DNA of 64,000 nucleotides from positions 4,608,001-4,672,000 of the forward strand of contig OY970325.1 in the NCBI GenBank assembly GCA_963717145.1. Direction: 5' to 3'. Below, one piece after another: positions 9,125-59,236 of the stretch. The notes under the pieces are model-generated. The model ran no database searches and was not told the DNA's origin. It was given only the letters and a program-made list of their open reading frames with translations. Positions within the stretch are counted from its first letter, which is position 1. The number at the start of each line of letters is the position of its first letter. Source of the stretch: an uncultured Armatimonadetes bacterium (GTDB taxonomy: Bacteria > Armatimonadota > UBA5829 > DTJY01). The translations under genes were made by a program, and so were the position numbers.

Positions 9125-9251
9125 AAATTCGAAATTCGAATCTCGAAACTCGAAACAATGCTGAATAGCCCAAAAAGCAATCAGGCAAGCGGTTTTGGGA
9201 TTTCCGTATCTGGGATTTGTTTCGAATTTCGATATTCGTGCTTCGAATTTC
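9125..9251. repeat. Inverted heptamer-repeat element (AAATTCG)n...(CGAATTT)n, copy 1
   Basis: 9217-9251 matches 43451-43485 at 34/35. Confidence 0.85.
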
Positions 9252-9882: not shown

Positions 9883-10004
9883 CGCTCGGTTGACGAACAC
9901 AAGAGGAATTCAGATACATAATGAGTAACGAGTAATGAGTAATCGGATAGGCCGCCGGCCATACTCATTACTCGTTACCCATTACGGTCCCAGGAGGAAA
10001 GCGC

Positions 10005-11944: not shown

Positions 11945-13338
11945 GGTCGGGTGATCTCCACGCCGGTGTAGTAGTGCTTGAGGACGTCCACGTAGGTGAT
12001 TCCGTCGCGGGACTTCGCGAGGCCGTTCGCGCCCCATTGACAGAGCCCGACGCCGTGCCCGTAGCCTCTCCCCTCGATGACGTACTTGCCCTCGGGGGTC
12101 ACGGTGAGCGCCATCCGGGTGCTCATGATCGTGCTCAAGCCGAAGAGGTCCCTGAACCGCGAGCCGCTGATCCGCTTCTCGCCATCCTGACCTTTGATGA
12201 TGATCGTCCGGACGCGCCCCGAGCCGTCGTATTCCGCGAACTCCATCGAGATCAACTTCCCGACCTTTGTGCTCGATGAGCGCGAGAACACCTTCGCCAG
12301 GTCCTCGACGGAGTACGTCTTCGTCCAAGTGTGCGCGCGGCTTGATGCGCAGTAGTCACCATCCGTCGGCCTCTCGAACTCGGTCATCGCAGGCCTGGGG
12401 CAGGCTTCTGACTGGTCTGACCCGTCTGACCCGTCCGACTGTTCACCGATCACCGATGACTGATCACCGATCACCGGCCTCACGAGACACGGTTCCCCGC
12501 AGGCGTTGTCCACCACCGACTTCATGTAGGCGGTCTTCATCATCCCCGAGTCCTCGCTCGACTGGGTCATCCCGCCGCAATCGGCCGAATAGCACGCGAA
12601 GATCGGCTCGCCCTTGTAGGTGATGATCTCACCCCGCGTGGCATCCACGATCTTCCGCACCCAGTCCGCCTCCCGGTCCGCGCCTGCGAAACCCTGGCAG
12701 TGGACGCCGTCGCACACGTTGAAGCCCTCGGACTTGTGGCGATCGACACTTCGAATCGCATACGTCCGCGCCGCGACGACGAGCGCCTTCTGGGCCTCGG
12801 GATGGAAGCTCGCGGGGATCTCGGTCGGGGTCACGCCGTAGAGGTAGTGCTCGACGCTCAACTCGTTGATGACAGTGAGCCTCGATCCGCCGCGGATTTC
12901 GAGTGTCTCGCGGTAGTGCTTGTACCGGAGCTTCGGGTCGGTGATCTCCAGCATCCCCTCCGCGGTCTGCGTGGCGATCTTCAGCGGCCCCTTGAACGTC
13001 GGCGGCTCCTGAGCCGGTTCCGACACGTCCGACACGTCCGACACCTCCGGTGCTTCGGACGTTGTCTCCACCTCGAACAGCTTCTCCCTGAGCCGGATCG
13101 TGATCTCCTTGCCGGCCTCGATCTCTGCGATCACCGTCTTGGTATCCAGATCGGTGACCGTCATCGGCTCGTCGGCCTTGATCGTGAGCGAGGCGGGATG
13201 TCCCACGCACGACTGAAGCCCGACGCGGATGGTCTGCGGAATCGCGGGAACAGCGGATGAGGCGGAAACCGTCAAAACAAGTAAGAAGAGGGCGTGCATG
13301 AGTAGGGGAATGCGTGAGAGCAAGGCCTTTGCGGTCAA
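11941..13338 (-). CDS. SpoIID/LytB domain protein (peptidoglycan lytic transglycosylase family)
   Basis: EHYLYGVTPTE, EAQKALVVAARTYA, CDGVHCQ, GYGHGVGLCQWGA, LKHYY; TTG start with AGGAGG. Confidence 0.92.
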   Translation of the reverse strand: MTAKALLSRIPLLMHALFLLVLTVSASSAVPAIPQTIRVGLQSCVGHPASLTIKADEPMTVTDLDTKTVIAEIEAGKEITIRLREKLFEVETTSEAPEVSDVSDVSEPAQEPPTFKGPLKIATQTAEGMLEITDPKLRYKHYRETLEIRGGSRLTVINELSVEHYLYGVTPTEIPASFHPEAQKALVVAARTYAIRSVDRHKSEGFNVCDGVHCQGFAGADREADWVRKIVDATRGEIITYKGEPIFACYSADCGGMTQSSEDSGMMKTAYMKSVVDNACGEPCLVRPVIGDQSSVIGEQSDGSDGSDQSEACPRPAMTEFERPTDGDYCASSRAHTWTKTYSVEDLAKVFSRSSSTKVGKLISMEFAEYDGSGRVRTIIIKGQDGEKRISGSRFRDLFGLSTIMSTRMALTVTPEGKYVIEGRGYGHGVGLCQWGANGLAKSRDGITYVDVLKHYYTGVEITRP

Positions 13339-21840: not shown

Positions 21841-22089
21841 TGGGATAGCCTGAGGTCGGCAGCTTGTGTTGAGCGAGATGCGGGACATCGATCAGCCTAT
21901 CAGATGTAAACAGCGCGGATTCGTTTCCTGTTTCATGGGGATCAGATCGGACGATCCCTAGTACCTTCTCGATTCCAGCTCTTCGCCACAGAAGTGCCCG
22001 CAAATGGAACCCCTATACCCCGTAGCCACCCCTAAAGATAGCACACTCCGATGCCGAAGATAGGGGTAGATCGCTCCATGCGCCGTTGC

Positions 22090-22290
22090 CCCTGATATCG
22101 AAACATCACAGGCGGCTATCCGGCGCGAAACGGTGCTTATCCCGGGCGAAGGGATACGTATCCCGGGCGAAAAGATAGCTATCCCGGGCGGCGGGATATG
22201 TATCTCGCCGGGAAGGATATGTATCTCGGCGCGGGGGATAGCGATCCCTCGCACCGGTATAGCTATCCCCGGCGGACCGATAGCGATCGG
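22090..22290. repeat. Phased array, 10 units, exact 21-bp period, palindromic core GATANNTATC
   Basis: (T/G)ATC at 22096, 22117, 22138, 22159, 22180, 22201, 22222, 22243, 22264, 22285. Confidence 0.9.
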
Positions 22291-22355: not shown

Positions 22356-23015
22356 GTGGCAAGAGATTACATCGTTCGGAAGGACCAGGAGTTCAATGCC
22401 TGGCTCGCGAACTTCATCACCAGTCTGAGTGCGCATTCGGCGGAATTCGGCCTTGTGCCGGAGGACCTGCTGCCCATCGAGGGCGAATCCACCGCCTTCG
22501 ATTCCGCGCTTACCTTACTGGAGCAGCGGCGAATCGCATTGAACTCGGCTTCGAAGAACAAGATGAGCAGGCGGGTCTCGACGGAGGCGGTCCTGCGCCC
22601 GCTCGTCCGCCGTATCACGGGCCATCCCGCGATGACCGACGGACTCCTGGGCCAACTGGGCCTGCCGGTTCGGAGAGTCCGCAAAGGAATCCTGCCGGTC
22701 GGACCAGAGGTCCCGGCGATACTCACCGAGGCCGCCCCGGGCCGGGTGATCATTCATTTTGGGACCGCGCCGGCGAACGAGCAGCGCAATGGAAAACCGG
22801 GATGGGCGAAGGGATGCAACATCTACCGCAGCAAGGCCGGCGAGTCTGACTTCCGGATGGTCGGCTTCGCGAGCGCATCTCCGTATGTCGATGAGGTGGT
22901 AGGAGCGGGATCGGATTACACGTACTACGTCCAGTATCGGGGAACGAAGGCCACCCAACTGGGTCAAGGCTCGCATCAGATGACCGTCGCGGCCCGTGGG
23001 TTGGAGGCGGCGTAG
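22356..23015 (+). CDS. Hypothetical protein (predicted helical N-term + FN3/Ig-like C-term), array-associated, copy 1
   Basis: GGAGGAGG RBS + GTG; homologous to 55786..56460. Confidence 0.85.
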   Translation: MARDYIVRKDQEFNAWLANFITSLSAHSAEFGLVPEDLLPIEGESTAFDSALTLLEQRRIALNSASKNKMSRRVSTEAVLRPLVRRITGHPAMTDGLLGQLGLPVRRVRKGILPVGPEVPAILTEAAPGRVIIHFGTAPANEQRNGKPGWAKGCNIYRSKAGESDFRMVGFASASPYVDEVVGAGSDYTYYVQYRGTKATQLGQGSHQMTVAARGLEAA

Positions 23016-23099
23016 GGGGAATGGTTGATGGGGGATGGTTCATGGTTGATGCCGGATCATTCCCCGTTTGCCATCGACCATCAGCCATCAACCATTCCC
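23007..23099. repeat. Heptamer (ATGGTTG)-based inverted repeat; first 51 bp shared with 55744-55794
   Basis: GGGAATGGTTGATGG...CCATCAACCATTCCC between convergent genes. Confidence 0.88.
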
Positions 23100-34504: not shown

Positions 34505-34631
34505 GCTCAGTTGTTACCCGGAAGAGACAGGAGCCACACTCGGAATGCGGAATTGCGAATGCGAAATGCGGATTCCCGGATGCTCTGGAGCTTCCGCTTT
34601 GGCACTCCAAAACACTCCACAACAGCGGATA

Positions 34632-43342: not shown

Positions 43343-43485
43343 AAATCAGAAATTCGAAGCTCGAAATTCGAAACAAACCGCAAATCAGGAGAACTGCGAA
43401 AGAAGCAAACGGTTGTTTTCCCGCATTTTCGGATTCCGGTGATTGCTTCTTTGTTTCGAGTTTCGATATTCGTGCTTCGAATTTC
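43343..43485. repeat. Inverted heptamer-repeat element, copy 2
   Basis: AAATCAG AAATTCG AAGCTCG AAATTCG...CGAGTTT CGATATT CGTGCTT CGAATTT. Confidence 0.85.
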
Positions 43486-53686: not shown

Positions 53687-53749
53687 CCAGGAGTGCGGGA
53701 TTCCGCATTCCGCATTCGCAATACCGCATTCGAGAAAGGAGGTGAAACA

Positions 53750-55555
53750 ATGTCAAAAGAAATCGTAGTAAACGTCGGTACCCGCGAAACGAGAATGGCG
53801 CTCATCGACGCCGGGAAGCTCGTCGAGCTTCACGTCGAGCGCGAGGAGCGGGTCGCCGGCAGTGTATACAAGTGCAGAGTCGCGAACGTGCTTCCCGGAA
53901 TGGATGCCGCGTTCGTCGATATCGGGCTGGAGCGCAATGCCTTCCTGTATGCGGGCGACGTCCTTCCCGAAGCCGGCGAGGAGTTCCCCGCCACGAAGAA
54001 GGAACCTCAGAGGTCCGTGAACATCAAGGACCTGCTCAAGGTCGGTCAGGAGTTGGTCGTCCAGGTAGTCAAAGGCCCGCGCGGAACCAAAGGCGCGCGC
54101 GTATCAACGAGGATATCGCTCCCCGGCAGGTACCTGGTCCTCATGCCCGATGCCGACAACATCGGAATCTCGCGCAAGATAGATGACCCCGCGGAGCGCG
54201 ACCGCCTGAAGAAGATCGCCGACAAGATCAAGCCGCCGAACTGCGGCATGATTGTTCGGACCGAGGCTGAGGGCAGGGGCGACCGCGAACTCCGCGCGGA
54301 TGTGGAGTTCCTCACGCGCATGATGTCGCAGATCCAGGAGAAGGCCAAGGTTACCTCGGCCCCTGGAGTCGTCCATCAGGACCTCAGCCTGGTATTCAAG
54401 ACCATACGCGACGTGTTCGGCGCGAACATCCAGCGGATGTTCATAGACTCGCCGACCGAGTATGACAAGGCCATGGATGTGGTCCATCTCATGTCGCCGA
54501 AGCTCAAATCGCGACTGCTGCTGTATGATGATTCCGAACCGATCTTCGAGCACTTCAGCATCGAGACAGAGATCGACCGGTTGCTCAAACGCAAAGTTTG
54601 GCTCAAGTCCGGTGGCCACCTCACCATTGATGAGACCGAAGCACTGACCACCATTGACGTAAACACCGGTAAGTTCATCGGCAGCACGAGTCTGTCCGAT
54701 ACGATCCTGAAGACGAACCTCGATGCCGCCGGGGAGATCGCACGGCAGCTAAGGCTGCGCGATATCGGCGGGATCATCATCATCGACTTCATCGATATGT
54801 CGAGCGCGAGAGACCGCTCGCACGTCGTGAACGCGCTCGATCGCGCCCTCAAGAAGGACCGCACGCGGACCAAGATCTCGAATATCAGCCCGCTCGGACT
54901 GATCGAGATGACCCGCAAACGGACCGGAGAGACCATCTCCGAGTTGATCAGCGAGGCGTGTCCGTACTGCCAGGGACGAGGAAGCATCCTGTCCCCGGAG
55001 TCGGTGAGCATCAATGTCGAGCGCGAGCTGATGCAGAAGTCCGCTGAGGTCGACGATGAGGCGTTCCTCATCACAGTCAACCCCGAGGTCGCGGAGTTCC
55101 TGATCGGCCCTCGCGGAGAGACGGTCAAGCTGATCGAGGAGCAGATCAGGCGCGCCGTCTACGTGCGGAGCAGCCACGATCAGCACATCGAGAAGTACGA
55201 GATACAGCCCGGCGACCTTCAGGAGATCGAGAAGCAGATGCTTCCGTTCCAGAGGTCGCAGATCGTGGAGTGCGAGGTCGTGCGCAACCCGTTCGTCAGC
55301 CTGCCGAGGGCGGCGGCGTGGGCGGACGGCTACATGGTGGACCTCGCAAACGGCGGGAAGTTCATCGGCCAGAAGGTCAAGGCCCGGCTGATAAGCGTCT
55401 CCCGCTCATACGCGGAGGGCGACGTCCTCAACCCGGTCAAAGCGCCCGGCGAGCGACCGCCCGCCCCGCGCGAGAAAGCCGAGCCGCGTCCGAGAGGCGA
55501 TCGCCGCCCGAGAGGCGACGACCGCCCGAGACGCGACGAACGCTCCGCCGGCTGA
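53750..55555 (+). CDS. Rne/Rng family ribonuclease with a C-terminal TRAM-like domain
   Basis: VLPGMDAAFVDIG, KGARVS, LPGRYLV, IDVNTG, LRLRDIGGIIIIDFIDM, CPYCQGRG; AAGGAGG RBS. Confidence 0.95.
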   Translation: MSKEIVVNVGTRETRMALIDAGKLVELHVEREERVAGSVYKCRVANVLPGMDAAFVDIGLERNAFLYAGDVLPEAGEEFPATKKEPQRSVNIKDLLKVGQELVVQVVKGPRGTKGARVSTRISLPGRYLVLMPDADNIGISRKIDDPAERDRLKKIADKIKPPNCGMIVRTEAEGRGDRELRADVEFLTRMMSQIQEKAKVTSAPGVVHQDLSLVFKTIRDVFGANIQRMFIDSPTEYDKAMDVVHLMSPKLKSRLLLYDDSEPIFEHFSIETEIDRLLKRKVWLKSGGHLTIDETEALTTIDVNTGKFIGSTSLSDTILKTNLDAAGEIARQLRLRDIGGIIIIDFIDMSSARDRSHVVNALDRALKKDRTRTKISNISPLGLIEMTRKRTGETISELISEACPYCQGRGSILSPESVSINVERELMQKSAEVDDEAFLITVNPEVAEFLIGPRGETVKLIEEQIRRAVYVRSSHDQHIEKYEIQPGDLQEIEKQMLPFQRSQIVECEVVRNPFVSLPRAAAWADGYMVDLANGGKFIGQKVKARLISVSRSYAEGDVLNPVKAPGERPPAPREKAEPRPRGDRRPRGDDRPRRDERSAG

Positions 55556-55557
55556 TA

Positions 55558-55635
55558 GATGTCCCCCTTACGAAGGGGGACCGGCCTCCGGGCACTCACG
55601 ATGTCCCCCTTACGAAGGGGGACCGGCCTCCGGGC
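55558..55635. repeat. Tandem 36-bp direct repeat containing the hairpin TCCCCCTTACGAAGGGGGA
   Basis: 55558-55593 is identical to 55600-55635. Confidence 0.88.
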
Positions 55636-55785
55636 CGAGGGGGTTTCGTCCCCGACGTGTCCGACCAGAACCAACAAGGCCCGTGGATCACCCGATCCGC
55701 GGGCCTTCTCAACTCGGCTGGTTGGTGCGGACCTGAACTCAGAATCCGGCATCAACCATCAACCATCCCCCATCAACCATTCCCC

Positions 55786-56460
55786 CTACGCCGCAATCGT
55801 CGCGCTCTGGAGATCGGACCAGCCGCCCTTCTTGCCGTCCTTGTAGACCCAGCGCATCTTATAGTGCGCCTGCTTGTTTCCATCGCCGGGCGGGAACGGC
55901 ACAGCAAGCGTATTCCGGGTCGACATATTGACATACCGCATATCGGCCTCGGGGTCCGCCGGTGGGTCCCCGACCTTCACCCAGACCTCGACCGCCCTGA
56001 CGCCTTCGGGCTTGCCCTTTGTGATGTCGTTCGCGTTCTGGTTCCGGATGCGGAGAGTATGCCTCAGGAGGGCGCTGATGTTGATACCTGCGACCGGCTT
56101 ATCCCGTGACCCCTCCGGACCCGGCGGGGGTGAAGACATGCCGCGTTTCGGCAGCCCGAGCGAGGCGCGCTGCTGGTTTGTCATATTCGGATGCCCCTGG
56201 ATGCGCGCCGCCATCGACCTGATCTGCTTCGCGAGGGTAGCCCTCTTGGCCTTCTTAGCCGAACACAAGCCTCTGGCAGTGGTCCGCGCCCTATCATGAT
56301 CGGCCCTGGCCTGAGCGAACTCCGGCGTTGTGGCGACCAGTTCGGCCAGGTCCGCCTCCGTCAGTCCGAACTGCTCCGGATTGGCGGTGAGGTAAGCTAC
56401 ATAGCGGTTCGCCCACTCCTGTAGTTTCAGATCGCTCTCCGGCAAATAGTCTCTTCCCAC
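55786..56460 (-). CDS. Hypothetical protein, array-associated, copy 2 (homolog of 22356..23015)
   Basis: GGAGG RBS + GTG; shared RDY, FGL..DL, HP.MT, LGLP, GKP motifs. Confidence 0.85.
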   Translation of the reverse strand: MGRDYLPESDLKLQEWANRYVAYLTANPEQFGLTEADLAELVATTPEFAQARADHDRARTTARGLCSAKKAKRATLAKQIRSMAARIQGHPNMTNQQRASLGLPKRGMSSPPPGPEGSRDKPVAGINISALLRHTLRIRNQNANDITKGKPEGVRAVEVWVKVGDPPADPEADMRYVNMSTRNTLAVPFPPGDGNKQAHYKMRWVYKDGKKGGWSDLQSATIAA

Positions 56461-56572
56461 GATGATGATACCTCCAGGCTGGCGTGACCGACGGGAGTCG
56501 GTCCATGATCTCGCGGCCGGCCTCTGATGCCGGCCACCCGGTATAATCATCGGGTATCGATGGCAGTATCTT

Positions 56573-56770
56573 TAGGGGAGAACTCCCGGCTCTACCTCCG
56601 GGAGTTCTTGTCACCATACCCGAGTACTCTCGGCAGCATGCCCAAGAGTTCTTGCCACTAGCCCCAAGAGCTGACGGCAACACACCCGAGAACTCCGGGC
56701 ACTGCACCCAGGAGTTCTCGGCACTACACCCGGAAGCTCACGCCACTATACCCGAGAGCCCTCGGCAAAG
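56573..56770. repeat. Phased array, 9 units, exact 22-bp period, palindromic core ~CCGAGAGCTCTCGG
   Basis: Units start at 56573, 56595, 56617, 56639, 56661, 56683, 56705, 56727, 56749. Confidence 0.85.
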
Positions 56771-56860
56771 CGGCGTAGAACCCAGGAATGACACGCTAGG
56801 GAGCCGACATCGTCATGCTGAACTCGATTCAGCACCCACGGTGGAGGCTCCCTGTGTGGA

Positions 56861-57970
56861 CTACTTCGACTTGGCCGGGGGCGGTGGCGCTTTCTTCGGG
56901 GCGGGCGCGCTCTTCAGGACATCGAGGAGGCCGGAGGGGACCATGAGGCGTCCGTTCACGACCTTCATCTTCTGAGCGAGCTTGATCGTCCCGCCGGTCC
57001 ACTCGATGGTGTCTTTCCCCGGCACGAGCGTGTACCGGTTCTTGCCGACGAAGAGCTTCGCCTCTTTCCCGAGCCATTCCACCTTCGCGCCGGGGATCTT
57101 GGCCGCGAGATCGCGGGTCGAGATAGGCTTGCCTGCCACCACGGATGGCTTAGTGGGCGAGGGAACCTGTGAGCCACCCATCGGTTCGTCGGCATAAAGG
57201 ATCTCACCCGTGATCGCATCTACCCCCGCGGCATAGGTCAGGTGCTCCCCCTGGGCATTGTCGCCAAGCACATCGAAGGCCCACATGGTGTTATCCGGGT
57301 CTTGAGAGAGCTCCGGATCGTAGTTTGCGCCTCCCGTTACCAGCCCTTTCGCGGTTTTCACTATCTCTATCGCCTGCTCTGCGGTGATCTGCGGCGCTTG
57401 AGGAGGCGGCATCGGAACTGCAAGACGGGAGCAGCCGTAATACTGAATACGACCGTCTGCGGGGCTCACCCTCACGCTGATGCTATTGGGAATCCACGCT
57501 CCGTAAGTATTCTTCCGTCGCCAGGAAAACCACCATCCATCGCCTTTCCACTTCGGTTCCTTCAATTGGAACCCCATGGTATCAAACTCGGCGTACTTTG
57601 CTCGGGCAAAGTTTTCCGCGATCTGCCGGCACTGCTCCTGCGTGAGTGGACCCGTAGGTTCCTCCGTTCGCACCTCCGAACGGGCTTCGTAGTAACTGGC
57701 CCTCGTCACCTCACCTGTGACGGCGTCGACGGTCCACCTATGGTCCTCATTCTGGGAGTCATAGATACGATAGGTTCTCTCATGCTCCCATTCGACACCT
57801 TCCAGGTCCTCCTCGATGGGATGGCAGGTAAGCTGGAGCGTGCTATTCCCCTCGAACGCTCGGACCGCATCCATAGCCTGCCCCCGACTGATCACCGACT
57901 GGCCCCTGCATCCGGCGGCCATGGTTACCAGCGCATAGCATATCAAAGCAAGCATTCGCAAACGTTTCAT
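56861..57970 (-). CDS. Secreted/lipoprotein with PepSY-like repeats and a conserved C-terminal module
   Basis: Signal with AAGC; ISRGQA, VDAVTGEV, ITAEQAIEI, VDAITGEI; C-term NGRLMVP. Confidence 0.7.
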   Translation of the reverse strand: MKRLRMLALICYALVTMAAGCRGQSVISRGQAMDAVRAFEGNSTLQLTCHPIEEDLEGVEWEHERTYRIYDSQNEDHRWTVDAVTGEVTRASYYEARSEVRTEEPTGPLTQEQCRQIAENFARAKYAEFDTMGFQLKEPKWKGDGWWFSWRRKNTYGAWIPNSISVRVSPADGRIQYYGCSRLAVPMPPPQAPQITAEQAIEIVKTAKGLVTGGANYDPELSQDPDNTMWAFDVLGDNAQGEHLTYAAGVDAITGEILYADEPMGGSQVPSPTKPSVVAGKPISTRDLAAKIPGAKVEWLGKEAKLFVGKNRYTLVPGKDTIEWTGGTIKLAQKMKVVNGRLMVPSGLLDVLKSAPAPKKAPPPPAKSK

Positions 57971-58138: not shown

Positions 58139-59236
58139 CTACTTCGACTTAGCTGGGGTCGATGGAGCTTTCTTCGAGGCGGGCGGGCTCTTCAGGACAT
58201 CGAGGAGGCCGGAGGGGACCATGAGGCGTCCGTTCACGAGCTTCATCTTCTGGGAGAGCTTGATCGTGCCGCCGGTCCACTCGATGGTGTCCTTCCCCGG
58301 CACGAGCGTGTACCGGTTCCTGCCGACGAAGAGCTTTGCTTCCTTCCCCAGCCAGTGGACCCGCGCGCCCGGTACCTTGGCCGCGAGGTCGCGGATGGAG
58401 ATGGGATTGCCGGTACGCCCATCTCTTGGCGGGCTGGACGGGAGACGTGCCCTTGATACGGAGAGGACTTCCCCCGTTTCCGCGTCAATGGCTACTGAAT
58501 TGCTGACATACCGGTCTTCCGCATCCAGCCCGCCGATCTCAGTGTTCCACGACACGTTCCCGTCCGGGTCCGCGACCAGGAGCGGCCCTTGCACGTCCAC
58601 AACTTCCACGATCCCCGCGGCTTGGGCAGCAAGGTCGAGCGCCTCAGCGGAGGTCACCTGGGGTGGAGGGGGATTCGGTGTTGGAACGCGAATGGAAGTA
58701 TACTCCAGTATGTAACCGGTTTCAGGTGCAACCACTACAGCAACCATATTGATGGTCAACGCGTCGTATGTGACCCTCTGCTGCCAACCGTAGAGCCAGC
58801 CGGTGCCTATCCATCTCTCCATCGTCAAGACGAATCCCATGGTATCGAATCCATTGTACTTCGACTGAGCGAAGTCCTCCGCAGTTGGCCGATATGCTTC
58901 CTTGGTAAATGGCTCGCCGGGCTCGCCATATGGCACTGACTCACCTAGATCGGCATATGAGGCGTGATTCACCTCTGCACTATGTCCATCCACCGTCCAC
59001 AGGCGACGGGACGCCGGATAGTCCGCAGTCCTCAATGTGTACCAAGAGCGGTGACTCCATGCCGGTCCGCTGTCATCCTCTTGCAGTTCTACGCACGTAA
59101 GCGCCAGAGAAGGTTCGTTCTCGAAGTCACGGACAGCCTGCTTAGCAGCCTCTTCCGTAATCAGCCCCTGTGCGAGGACAAGTGCACACTGGAGCACGAG
59201 CCAAGCGGCAATGGCAACGCGAATGATGAGTTTCAT
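58139..59236 (-). CDS. Secreted PepSY-like repeat protein, paralog of 56861..57970
   Basis: ITEEAAKQAV, VTSAEALDLA, IDAETGEV; last ~85 aa nearly identical to the paralog. Confidence 0.7.
   Translation of the reverse strand: MKLIIRVAIAAWLVLQCALVLAQGLITEEAAKQAVRDFENEPSLALTCVELQEDDSGPAWSHRSWYTLRTADYPASRRLWTVDGHSAEVNHASYADLGESVPYGEPGEPFTKEAYRPTAEDFAQSKYNGFDTMGFVLTMERWIGTGWLYGWQQRVTYDALTINMVAVVVAPETGYILEYTSIRVPTPNPPPPQVTSAEALDLAAQAAGIVEVVDVQGPLLVADPDGNVSWNTEIGGLDAEDRYVSNSVAIDAETGEVLSVSRARLPSSPPRDGRTGNPISIRDLAAKVPGARVHWLGKEAKLFVGRNRYTLVPGKDTIEWTGGTIKLSQKMKLVNGRLMVPSGLLDVLKSPPASKKAPSTPAKSK

Follow-up and report, generated by a model that had tools for sequence, protein, structure and literature searches.

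The array 2 locus

We analysed a stretch of 64,000 nucleotides (the window) from contig OY970325.1 (assembly GCA_963717145.1, positions 4,608,001 to 4,672,000) of an uncultured Armatimonadetes bacterium. Near the end of the window an intergenic tandem repeat, array 2, precedes a gene for a 224-aa protein that joins a coiled-coil-like part to a fibronectin type III (Fn3) domain, and a comparable array, array 1, precedes a paralogous gene near 22 kb. A sequence-only reading of the window had taken the inverted arms of the array 2 units to vary together, and had proposed from this either a structured RNA or single-stranded DNA (ssDNA), or an array of binding sites for a dimer. The features of the array 2 locus, in the direction of the gene, are as follows:

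56571..56768, minus (the strand of the downstream gene): array 2, made of nine 22-bp units in direct succession, with the dyad CCGAGAGCTCTCGG at the centre of each
56570..56575, minus: -35-like hexamer CTAAAG, part of the promoter-like motif of the family, overlapping the last 5 nt of unit 9 (putative function)
56546..56551, minus: -10-like hexamer GATGAT, 18 nt past the -35-like hexamer (putative function)
56515..56535, minus: GC-rich inverted repeat (GGCCGGCC.. / ..GCCGGCC) in the presumed 5' leader; paralogues have analogous hairpins after the -10-like box
56471..56475, minus: GGAGG ribosome-binding site, 10 nt ahead of the GTG start
55786..56460, minus: gene for the 224-aa coiled-coil-like and Fn3 protein (sub-family A), GTG start, stop included
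55744..55785, minus: heptad-repeat element (GGTTGAT units), directly 3' of the stop codon, of a genome-wide kind not specific to the family

The array itself is as had been read: nine units of 22 bp upstream of the gene, with no gaps between them and zero insertions or deletions. Their consensus is GTGCCGAGAGCTCTCGGGTnTA, with a mean column identity of 76%. The periodicity is far above chance, as the autocorrelation of these 198 nt peaks at 0.643 at lag 44, compared to a mean of 0.349 (sd 0.016; maximum 0.405) in 300 dinucleotide shuffles. Over the interval 56560-56790, lags 44, 22 and 66 reach 0.59, 0.56 and 0.55, and the next best lag 0.35. Because the units are this degenerate, Tandem Repeats Finder (TRF) reported just 56700-56754 (2.5 copies, score 61). 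Within the consensus, 14 bp form a perfect dyad without a loop, CCGAGAGCTCTCGG. Of the 63 unit-by-pair cells, 74.6% pair in register, and sliding the partner column by 1-3 lowers this to 29-59%. Elsewhere in the genome there is no second array built on this dyad, and its near-matches (39) are isolated.

A coding peptide repeat was rejected given the period of 22 and the TAG triplets within the units. The earlier argument to the same effect, that a 22-bp period is not divisible by 3, is arithmetically correct but moot, since the array is intergenic and several junctions between its units contain TAG on the sense strand. We also rejected a CRISPR array, the units being head to tail without spacers and without a CRISPR match in Rfam, and a repetitive extragenic palindromic (REP) element, the unit being private to this locus.

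Every inverted arm that had been listed for array 2 is found in the sequence, and so are the GGGAT/ATCCC arms of array 1 and their CCGAT/ATCGG variant. Joint variation of the arms in array 2 is another matter. A single cell out of 63 changed on both sides (in unit 6, from G-C to A-T, the sole two-sided change in the common register), whereas shuffles gave a mean of 2.5, and 487 of 500 shuffles equalled or exceeded the observed value. The percentage of paired cells was 74.6 vs 77.0 in shuffles, and the covariation score 0.187 vs 0.224. Two of the supposed compensated pairs, GGGAG/CTCCC and CCCG/CGGG, are dyads whose axes are shifted by 1 and 0.5 bp from the consensus axis. Covariation in array 2 is thus no higher than in shuffled controls, the comparison that the reading itself had proposed, and compensatory change is lost as its basis.

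A gene family with private repeat arrays

What the sequence-only reading had missed is that array 2 belongs to a gene-plus-array cassette that is genome-wide and present in several phyla. The source genome (G000) is one contig of 5.37 Mb with 60.6% GC and encodes 25 paralogues (215-227 aa); no others turned up when all its open reading frames (ORFs) were searched with a profile. Fifteen of them, including the gene at array 2, form sub-family A, and the other ten, including the gene at 22 kb, sub-family B. Judged by size and order, without a Pfam scan of the neighbours, no neighbouring gene recurs around the 25 loci; neighbours differ from locus to locus, and therefore each family gene stands alone. 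At array 2, the 224-aa gene is followed by a convergent ORF of 620 aa, the gene on the upstream side is unrelated, and there is no partner filament or ATPase gene in an operon with the 224-aa gene.

Arrays were defined as TRF calls within the 750 nt before the start codon, excluding heptad repeats, with a period of 17-26 or 36-50. By this definition they were found as follows:

G000 paralogues: 23 of 25 loci (periods 21-24 or 41-44)
four related genomes: 16 of 19 loci
named metagenome-assembled genomes (Pyrinomonadaceae/Blastocatellia, Phycisphaerae, Hormoscilla and Fimbriimonadaceae; four phyla): 8 of 16 loci
remote homologues elsewhere in the phylum: 12 of 20 loci
all family loci: 59 of 80
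random 750-nt windows of G000: 54 of 2000 (2.7%)

The period is the common trait of these arrays: 48 of the 59 have one of 21 or 42 bp, six of 22, 43 or 44 bp, and the remaining five of 17, 18 (two), 24 or 41 bp. Unit sequences are unrelated between most loci, each paralogue array having its own unit, and arrays reach up to 18 units. Arrays can also be mistaken for protein: among the longer metagenome homologues, three of the six fetched start with 7- or 14-residue repeats, which are arrays translated by gene callers.

The family is large, with 3400 cluster representatives at E<=1e-10 in a profile search, and patchy, being carried by 19 of the 201 genomes sampled in the phylum. The scan of genome collections used an alignment of 8 rows; the 25-row alignment held no block conserved enough. 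The viral, phage and plasmid collections searched yielded no relative of the family, and we consequently set aside a phage or plasmid origin of the cassette. Within G000, the loci show no clear replication-related placement with respect to the GC-skew extremes (4.75 and 1.09 Mb), and the arrays no consistent strand composition bias. The cassette looks like an undescribed pairing of a widespread, unknown gene family with private repeat arrays: a literature search at the level of titles and abstract openings found no such cassette, although it may have been published elsewhere.

Orthologous arrays evolve in concert and show small differences in unit number. This, together with the degeneracy of units such as those of array 2, is what would be expected from neutral, functionless products of replication slippage seeded by palindromes. 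Such an origin does not account, however, for an association seen at 59 of 80 family loci over four phyla compared to 2.7% of random windows, nor for a period that is kept across unrelated unit sequences, nor for dyad arms that are better conserved than the spacers (see below), and we give it hardly any credence.

Double-stranded sites or hairpins

A promoter-like motif, CTnnAG-N17-19-GAYRAT, occurs once in 12 of the 25 paralogue loci, compared to a genome-wide background of 0.028 per kb per strand, and a core, CC[GA]AYRAT, in 13 of the 15 loci of sub-family A. Its position relative to the array depends on the sub-family. In all seven sub-family A loci that have the full motif, the array 2 locus included, it sits between array and gene. 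In all five sub-family B loci that have it, and likewise in the relatives L043, L052 and L034/35, it is found upstream of the array, which would therefore lie in the leader. Array 1 is one such case, and would be in the leader given the motif upstream of it:

22032..22061, plus: promoter-like motif CTAAAG-N18-GAAGAT, upstream of array 1 (putative function)
22117..22290, plus: array 1, with units of 21 bp (TATCCC-N7-GGGATA-NN), about eight in all, ahead of the second paralogue of the window
22356..23015, plus: gene for the 219-aa paralogue (sub-family B), GTG start, stop included; the protein is 27% identical to the 224-aa protein (E 4e-16)

The leaders themselves contain further structure. Those of four sub-family A paralogues of G000 (460070, 2876900, 5282019 and 1436737) share a stem-loop, GGCGGC-TAATCTGnAmCnCAA-GCCGCC, after a -10-like CCGAYAAT box. 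Changes in the stem preserve pairing, and the window has a GC-rich hairpin at the same place (56515-56535). In seven loci a long gap separates the array from the family gene; no ORF recurs there that could be a small regulator gene, and the gaps contain just elements resembling miniature inverted-repeat transposable elements (MITEs) and heptad elements.

Dyad-symmetric units in a row could act single-stranded, as a series of RNA (or ssDNA) hairpins, one per unit, that are bound or processed. Some data agree with this. The sense-strand RNA of array 2 is predicted to fold at -108.8 kcal/mol, compared to -86.0 +/- 4.6 in shuffles (z -4.9), and the arrays of sub-family B and of several relatives lie 3' of the promoter-like motif, and so in a presumed leader. 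Yet the predicted fold pairs neighbouring units instead of forming nine hairpins, the dyad of array 2 is loop-less (dyads across arrays are mostly contiguous, leaving no room for a loop), array 2 shows no covariation, and in an Rfam scan of the whole window one tRNA alone reached the gathering score, with no match for array 2. The location of the promoter-like motif downstream of array 2 also weighs for DNA rather than RNA.

Substitution patterns across arrays mostly speak in the same sense. Broken dyad pairs show no bias of G.T over A.C when pooled (66 vs 64) or in sub-family A (27 vs 35); outside sub-family A there is a slight lean toward G.T (33 vs 18), based on related loci, which would suit hairpins. 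Double changes that keep the pair, likewise in favour of hairpins, are raised in the pool of 35 arrays (31 vs 23.4 in shuffles; 7 of 500 shuffles reach 31), but uncompensated doubles are raised equally (35 vs 24.9), a pattern that fits unequal divergence of the units better than selection for pairing. Moreover, correction of quasi-palindromes by template switching can yield symmetric changes without any selection. We consider it improbable that array 2 works as a row of hairpins; it is chiefly for the sub-family B arrays, in their presumed leaders, that this reading stays open.

Other findings favour a sequence-specific reading. In 12 of 16 arrays, the units agree better at the dyad arms than elsewhere (mean difference 0.076, Wilcoxon p 0.018), and in two orthologue pairs the arms are kept and the spacers drift. 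Of the 44 array consensus units put to a whole-unit dyad test, 14 pass at p<=0.05, compared to an expectation of about 2. Of the two branches that the sequence-only reading had offered, structured RNA or ssDNA finds little support in array 2, and an array of dimer-binding sites with conserved spacing fits, because the period is kept while the sequence differs among the 59 arrays, and because dyad arms are more conserved than spacers. A protein-bound array on double-stranded DNA (dsDNA) is thus the best explanation for array 2, given its two-turn period, contiguous dyads, conserved arms, the position of the motif and the lack of an RNA signal.

Candidate binders, known systems and neighbouring elements

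The account that we tentatively prefer, at slightly less than an even chance, takes array 2 for dsDNA sites of operator or iteron type, in phase with the helix and recognised by a dimeric binder, of which the protein encoded in the cassette is the simplest candidate. The nine dyads recur every 22 bp, close to two turns of the helix, and this row of sites would end on the -35-like element of the downstream gene. A dimeric, sequence-specific protein would fill adjacent sites cooperatively, along almost the same face of the DNA, and once bound would set or limit transcription of the gene, or else build a larger nucleoprotein complex at the array. Array and gene would form a single cassette that has multiplied and diverged. 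Since the paralogues keep the period and have each their private unit, the simplest binder would be the product of the cassette, with its helical N-domain and Fn3 domain. The one-gene nature of the cassette and its spread over phyla argue for the same candidate. The identity of the binder is less certain than the reading of array 2 as dsDNA sites.

We modelled the 224-aa protein with AlphaFold2 (AF2) from the 25-paralogue alignment, with high confidence (pLDDT 91.6). The model comprises coil and helices at 10-26, 35-88 and 95-101, then a linker of poor order and, at the C-terminus, a beta-sandwich. With this model Foldseek found fibronectin type III domains alone, both in PDB and in BFVD. The protein is therefore predicted to consist of a helical N-domain followed by a C-terminal Fn3 domain. 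The long helix of the family carries near-invariant K69, R73, R81 and R98, which counts in favour of this candidate. Among PDB sequences there was no match that names the protein. Nearly all family proteins, among the 25 G000 paralogues and 20 remote homologues (L085-L104), end in Ala-Ala (ATIAA, KAA, MAA, IAA), which we take to be reminiscent of C-terminal degradation tags.

About 13 further arrays of the 21-bp type exist in G000 without a family gene. Several of these orphan arrays precede carbohydrate-related genes at a distance of 10-300 nt (GH99-like, beta-helix, NanM-Kelch+SSF transporter, MFS, LarA, GHL10 and GH43-like):

G000 1161107-1161280, 1189080-1189244, 4826975-4827139, 571408-571566, 2306615-2306721, 546374-546997 and 1285229-1285358: orphan arrays before carbohydrate-related genes (L075-L082)

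For six of the 13, 13-14 of 14 bases agree with a family-linked array, compared to 10-12 under the null, and some of the six precede carbohydrate-use genes; for example, the 43-bp units ahead of paralogue 460070 are found again at 546484 and 1805383. From these similarities, the matching orphan arrays may point to action in trans. The orphan arrays do not carry the promoter-like motif of the family, and the REP-like 40-45-mers of the genome form clusters that are separate from the arrays.

A number of observations weigh against our preferred account of operator-like sites read by the cassette's own protein. The first group concerns the promoter. The opposite order of array and motif in sub-families A and B means that no single simple scheme of activation or repression covers both. 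A scan with the sigma-70 consensus found no promoter-like site at the array 1 or array 2 locus, and the family motif, from which the promoter is inferred, differs from the canonical TTGACA-N17-TGGTATAAT found before tRNA genes. The second group concerns the protein. Neither the AF2 model (three helices and Fn3) nor Foldseek reveals a recognisable DNA-binding fold, a profile of the N-domain (58 sequences) gives weak coiled-coil-like matches, and 18 of the 25 paralogues are net acidic. At curated cut-offs there is no match in Pfam, PHROGs, NCBIfam or PADLOC, the weak rows being at chance level (for instance Pfam Rod_CreS, at 16 bits vs a cut-off of 100 bits). Finally, two findings concern the arrays: seven of the 13 orphan arrays match no family-linked array, so that at least some 21-bp arrays in G000 have a binder that is not encoded beside them, and 30 of the 44 arrays fail the whole-unit dyad test, which makes the period, and not the dyad, the universal feature.

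The missing fold, the acidic proteins, the unmatched orphan arrays and the presence of 21-bp dyad arrays before unrelated carbohydrate-related genes would all be natural if the arrays were tandem operators for regulators encoded elsewhere, the Fn3 family being a mere target class alongside carbohydrate-use genes. This scenario must contend with a one-gene cassette that has varied neighbours and nonetheless keeps its link to an array across four phyla. A separate regulator would need to be co-transferred for each of the 25 unit sequences, and the orphan arrays lack the family's promoter-like motif. We judge it unlikely, though it deserves consideration.

A period conserved in 48 of 59 arrays at 21 or 42 bp with free sequence, and often without a significant dyad, could alternatively reflect no sequence-specific binder at all: two-turn repeats add bends in phase, and the resulting curved or superhelical DNA could be wrapped by a nucleoid protein or by RNA polymerase. 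On the other side, dyads are far more frequent than chance predicts, with arms that are conserved better than any other positions, distant loci can have related unit sequences, G000 also contains periods of 22, 24 and 43-44 bp, and the leader placement in sub-family B is odd for an upstream curvature element. Curvature as the sole function of the arrays seems to us quite unlikely.

A more ambitious form of the operator-like account can be formulated, which we put forward as possible but doubtful. The coiled-coil-like and Fn3 proteins would be an unrecognised and very large bacterial family of sequence-specific DNA binders, each with a private, helically phased address array. The cassette would be self-contained and able to multiply to at least 25 mutually distinct pairs in a single genome, and matching arrays could tie paralogues to carbohydrate-use genes.

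Several known systems resemble array 2 in part. Plasmid iterons with their Rep initiator (R6K, pPS10, RK2, P1) consist of 4-12 direct repeats of about 17-22 bp, phased at about 22 bp, that adjoin the gene of the binder and are private to each replicon. Array 2, with nine gap-free direct repeats of 22 bp, is alike in this respect (at least 3 repeats of 17-22 bp with a phasing of about 22 bp). However, its units are dyad-symmetric, and the adjoining gene encodes neither Rep nor a winged helix (no Rep or winged-helix family was found in Pfam, nor Rep in NCBIfam). There is no AT-rich unwinding region beside it (GC is 0.56-0.69 throughout 56000-57200) and no DnaA box, the nearest TTATCCACA-like site (1 mismatch) being about 10 kb away. 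The 25 cassettes, moreover, are scattered on one chromosome and not carried by a plasmid or phage replicon.

Ribbon-helix-helix (RHH) proteins (ParR/parC of R1 and pSK41, the omega repressor with its heptads, Arc and MetJ) bind repeats in the promoter of their own gene as cooperative dimers, on contiguous dyads, with autoregulation. Array 2 likewise has contiguous dyads. Its repeats abut a promoter-like motif, a putative promoter of what may be the gene of the binder. Its units measure 21-22 bp compared to 7-11 bp for RHH, its protein carries Fn3, and there is no RHH signature or partner motor gene: no RHH family appears among the Pfam matches of the 58 N-domains, and the AF2 monomer has no N-terminal strand. 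Oligomeric sugar repressors of the GlpR/DeoR family bind tandem palindromic operators of about 20 bp with helical phasing, in sets of 2-4 units. The orphan arrays recall them by preceding carbohydrate-use genes, but arrays here reach 18 units and the linked protein has no DeoR or helix-turn-helix (HTH) domain in Pfam. CRISPR and REP/BIME elements share with array 2 the short, dyad-symmetric intergenic repeats in series; array 2 differs from the former by its lack of spacers, and from the latter by a unit that is private to its locus and not shared genome-wide. Array 2 thus falls outside the iteron-origin, ParR/parC, CRISPR and Rfam families, lacking defining features of each that could be tested.

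If the cassette protein reads its own array, it would represent a new DNA-binding architecture with many natural specificities, and the 3400 representatives would offer a ready supply of proteins paired orthogonally with their sites, from which a recognition code could be worked out. If it does not bind, a conserved two-turn period with free sequence would still suggest an unstudied form of gene control. The genomes concerned are Armatimonadota-like, Acidobacteriota, Planctomycetota and cyanobacterial. Family and arrays are absent from Pfam, NCBIfam, PHROGs, PADLOC and Rfam, and gene callers mis-annotate the arrays as N-terminal heptapeptide repeats.

Other repeats are interspersed with the cassettes. 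Several leaders, and the surroundings of orphan arrays, contain insertions of MITE-like elements, which have ends GGATGTCATTC...GAATGACATCC and long inverted repeats inside (G000 2877170-2877340, 1437540-1437610 and 1805680-1805800, approximate positions). Tandem 7-bp (heptad) repeats, often in inverted pairs able to form long hairpins, are found directly after stop codons and between tRNA genes; in the window they lie at 9125-9156, 9919-9985, 12443-12476, 23016-23098, 34541-34572, 43349-43485, 53700-53731 and 55750-55785. The sequence ATGGTTGATGG occurs 341 times in the genome, compared to 1.6 expected. The heptad repeats are often followed by a GC hairpin with a T-run.

Around the array 2 locus, the convergent 620-aa ORF encodes what we take, from its N-terminal sequence, to be an RNase E/G-like protein. 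An 18-bp tandem repeat (55490-55543, 3 copies) lies within its C-terminal tail, rich in Arg, Pro and Asp, and the ORF is followed at 55559-55640 by two direct copies of a 36-nt hairpin element (GATGTCCCCCTTACGAAGGGGGACCGGCCTCCGGGC), a member of a REP-like family of 40-45-bp units found elsewhere in the genome. On the other side of array 2, two tandem paralogous genes (56861-57970 and 58139-59236, minus strand) encode proteins of 369 and 365 aa with signal-peptide-like N-termini, whose C-terminal 80 residues are near-identical.

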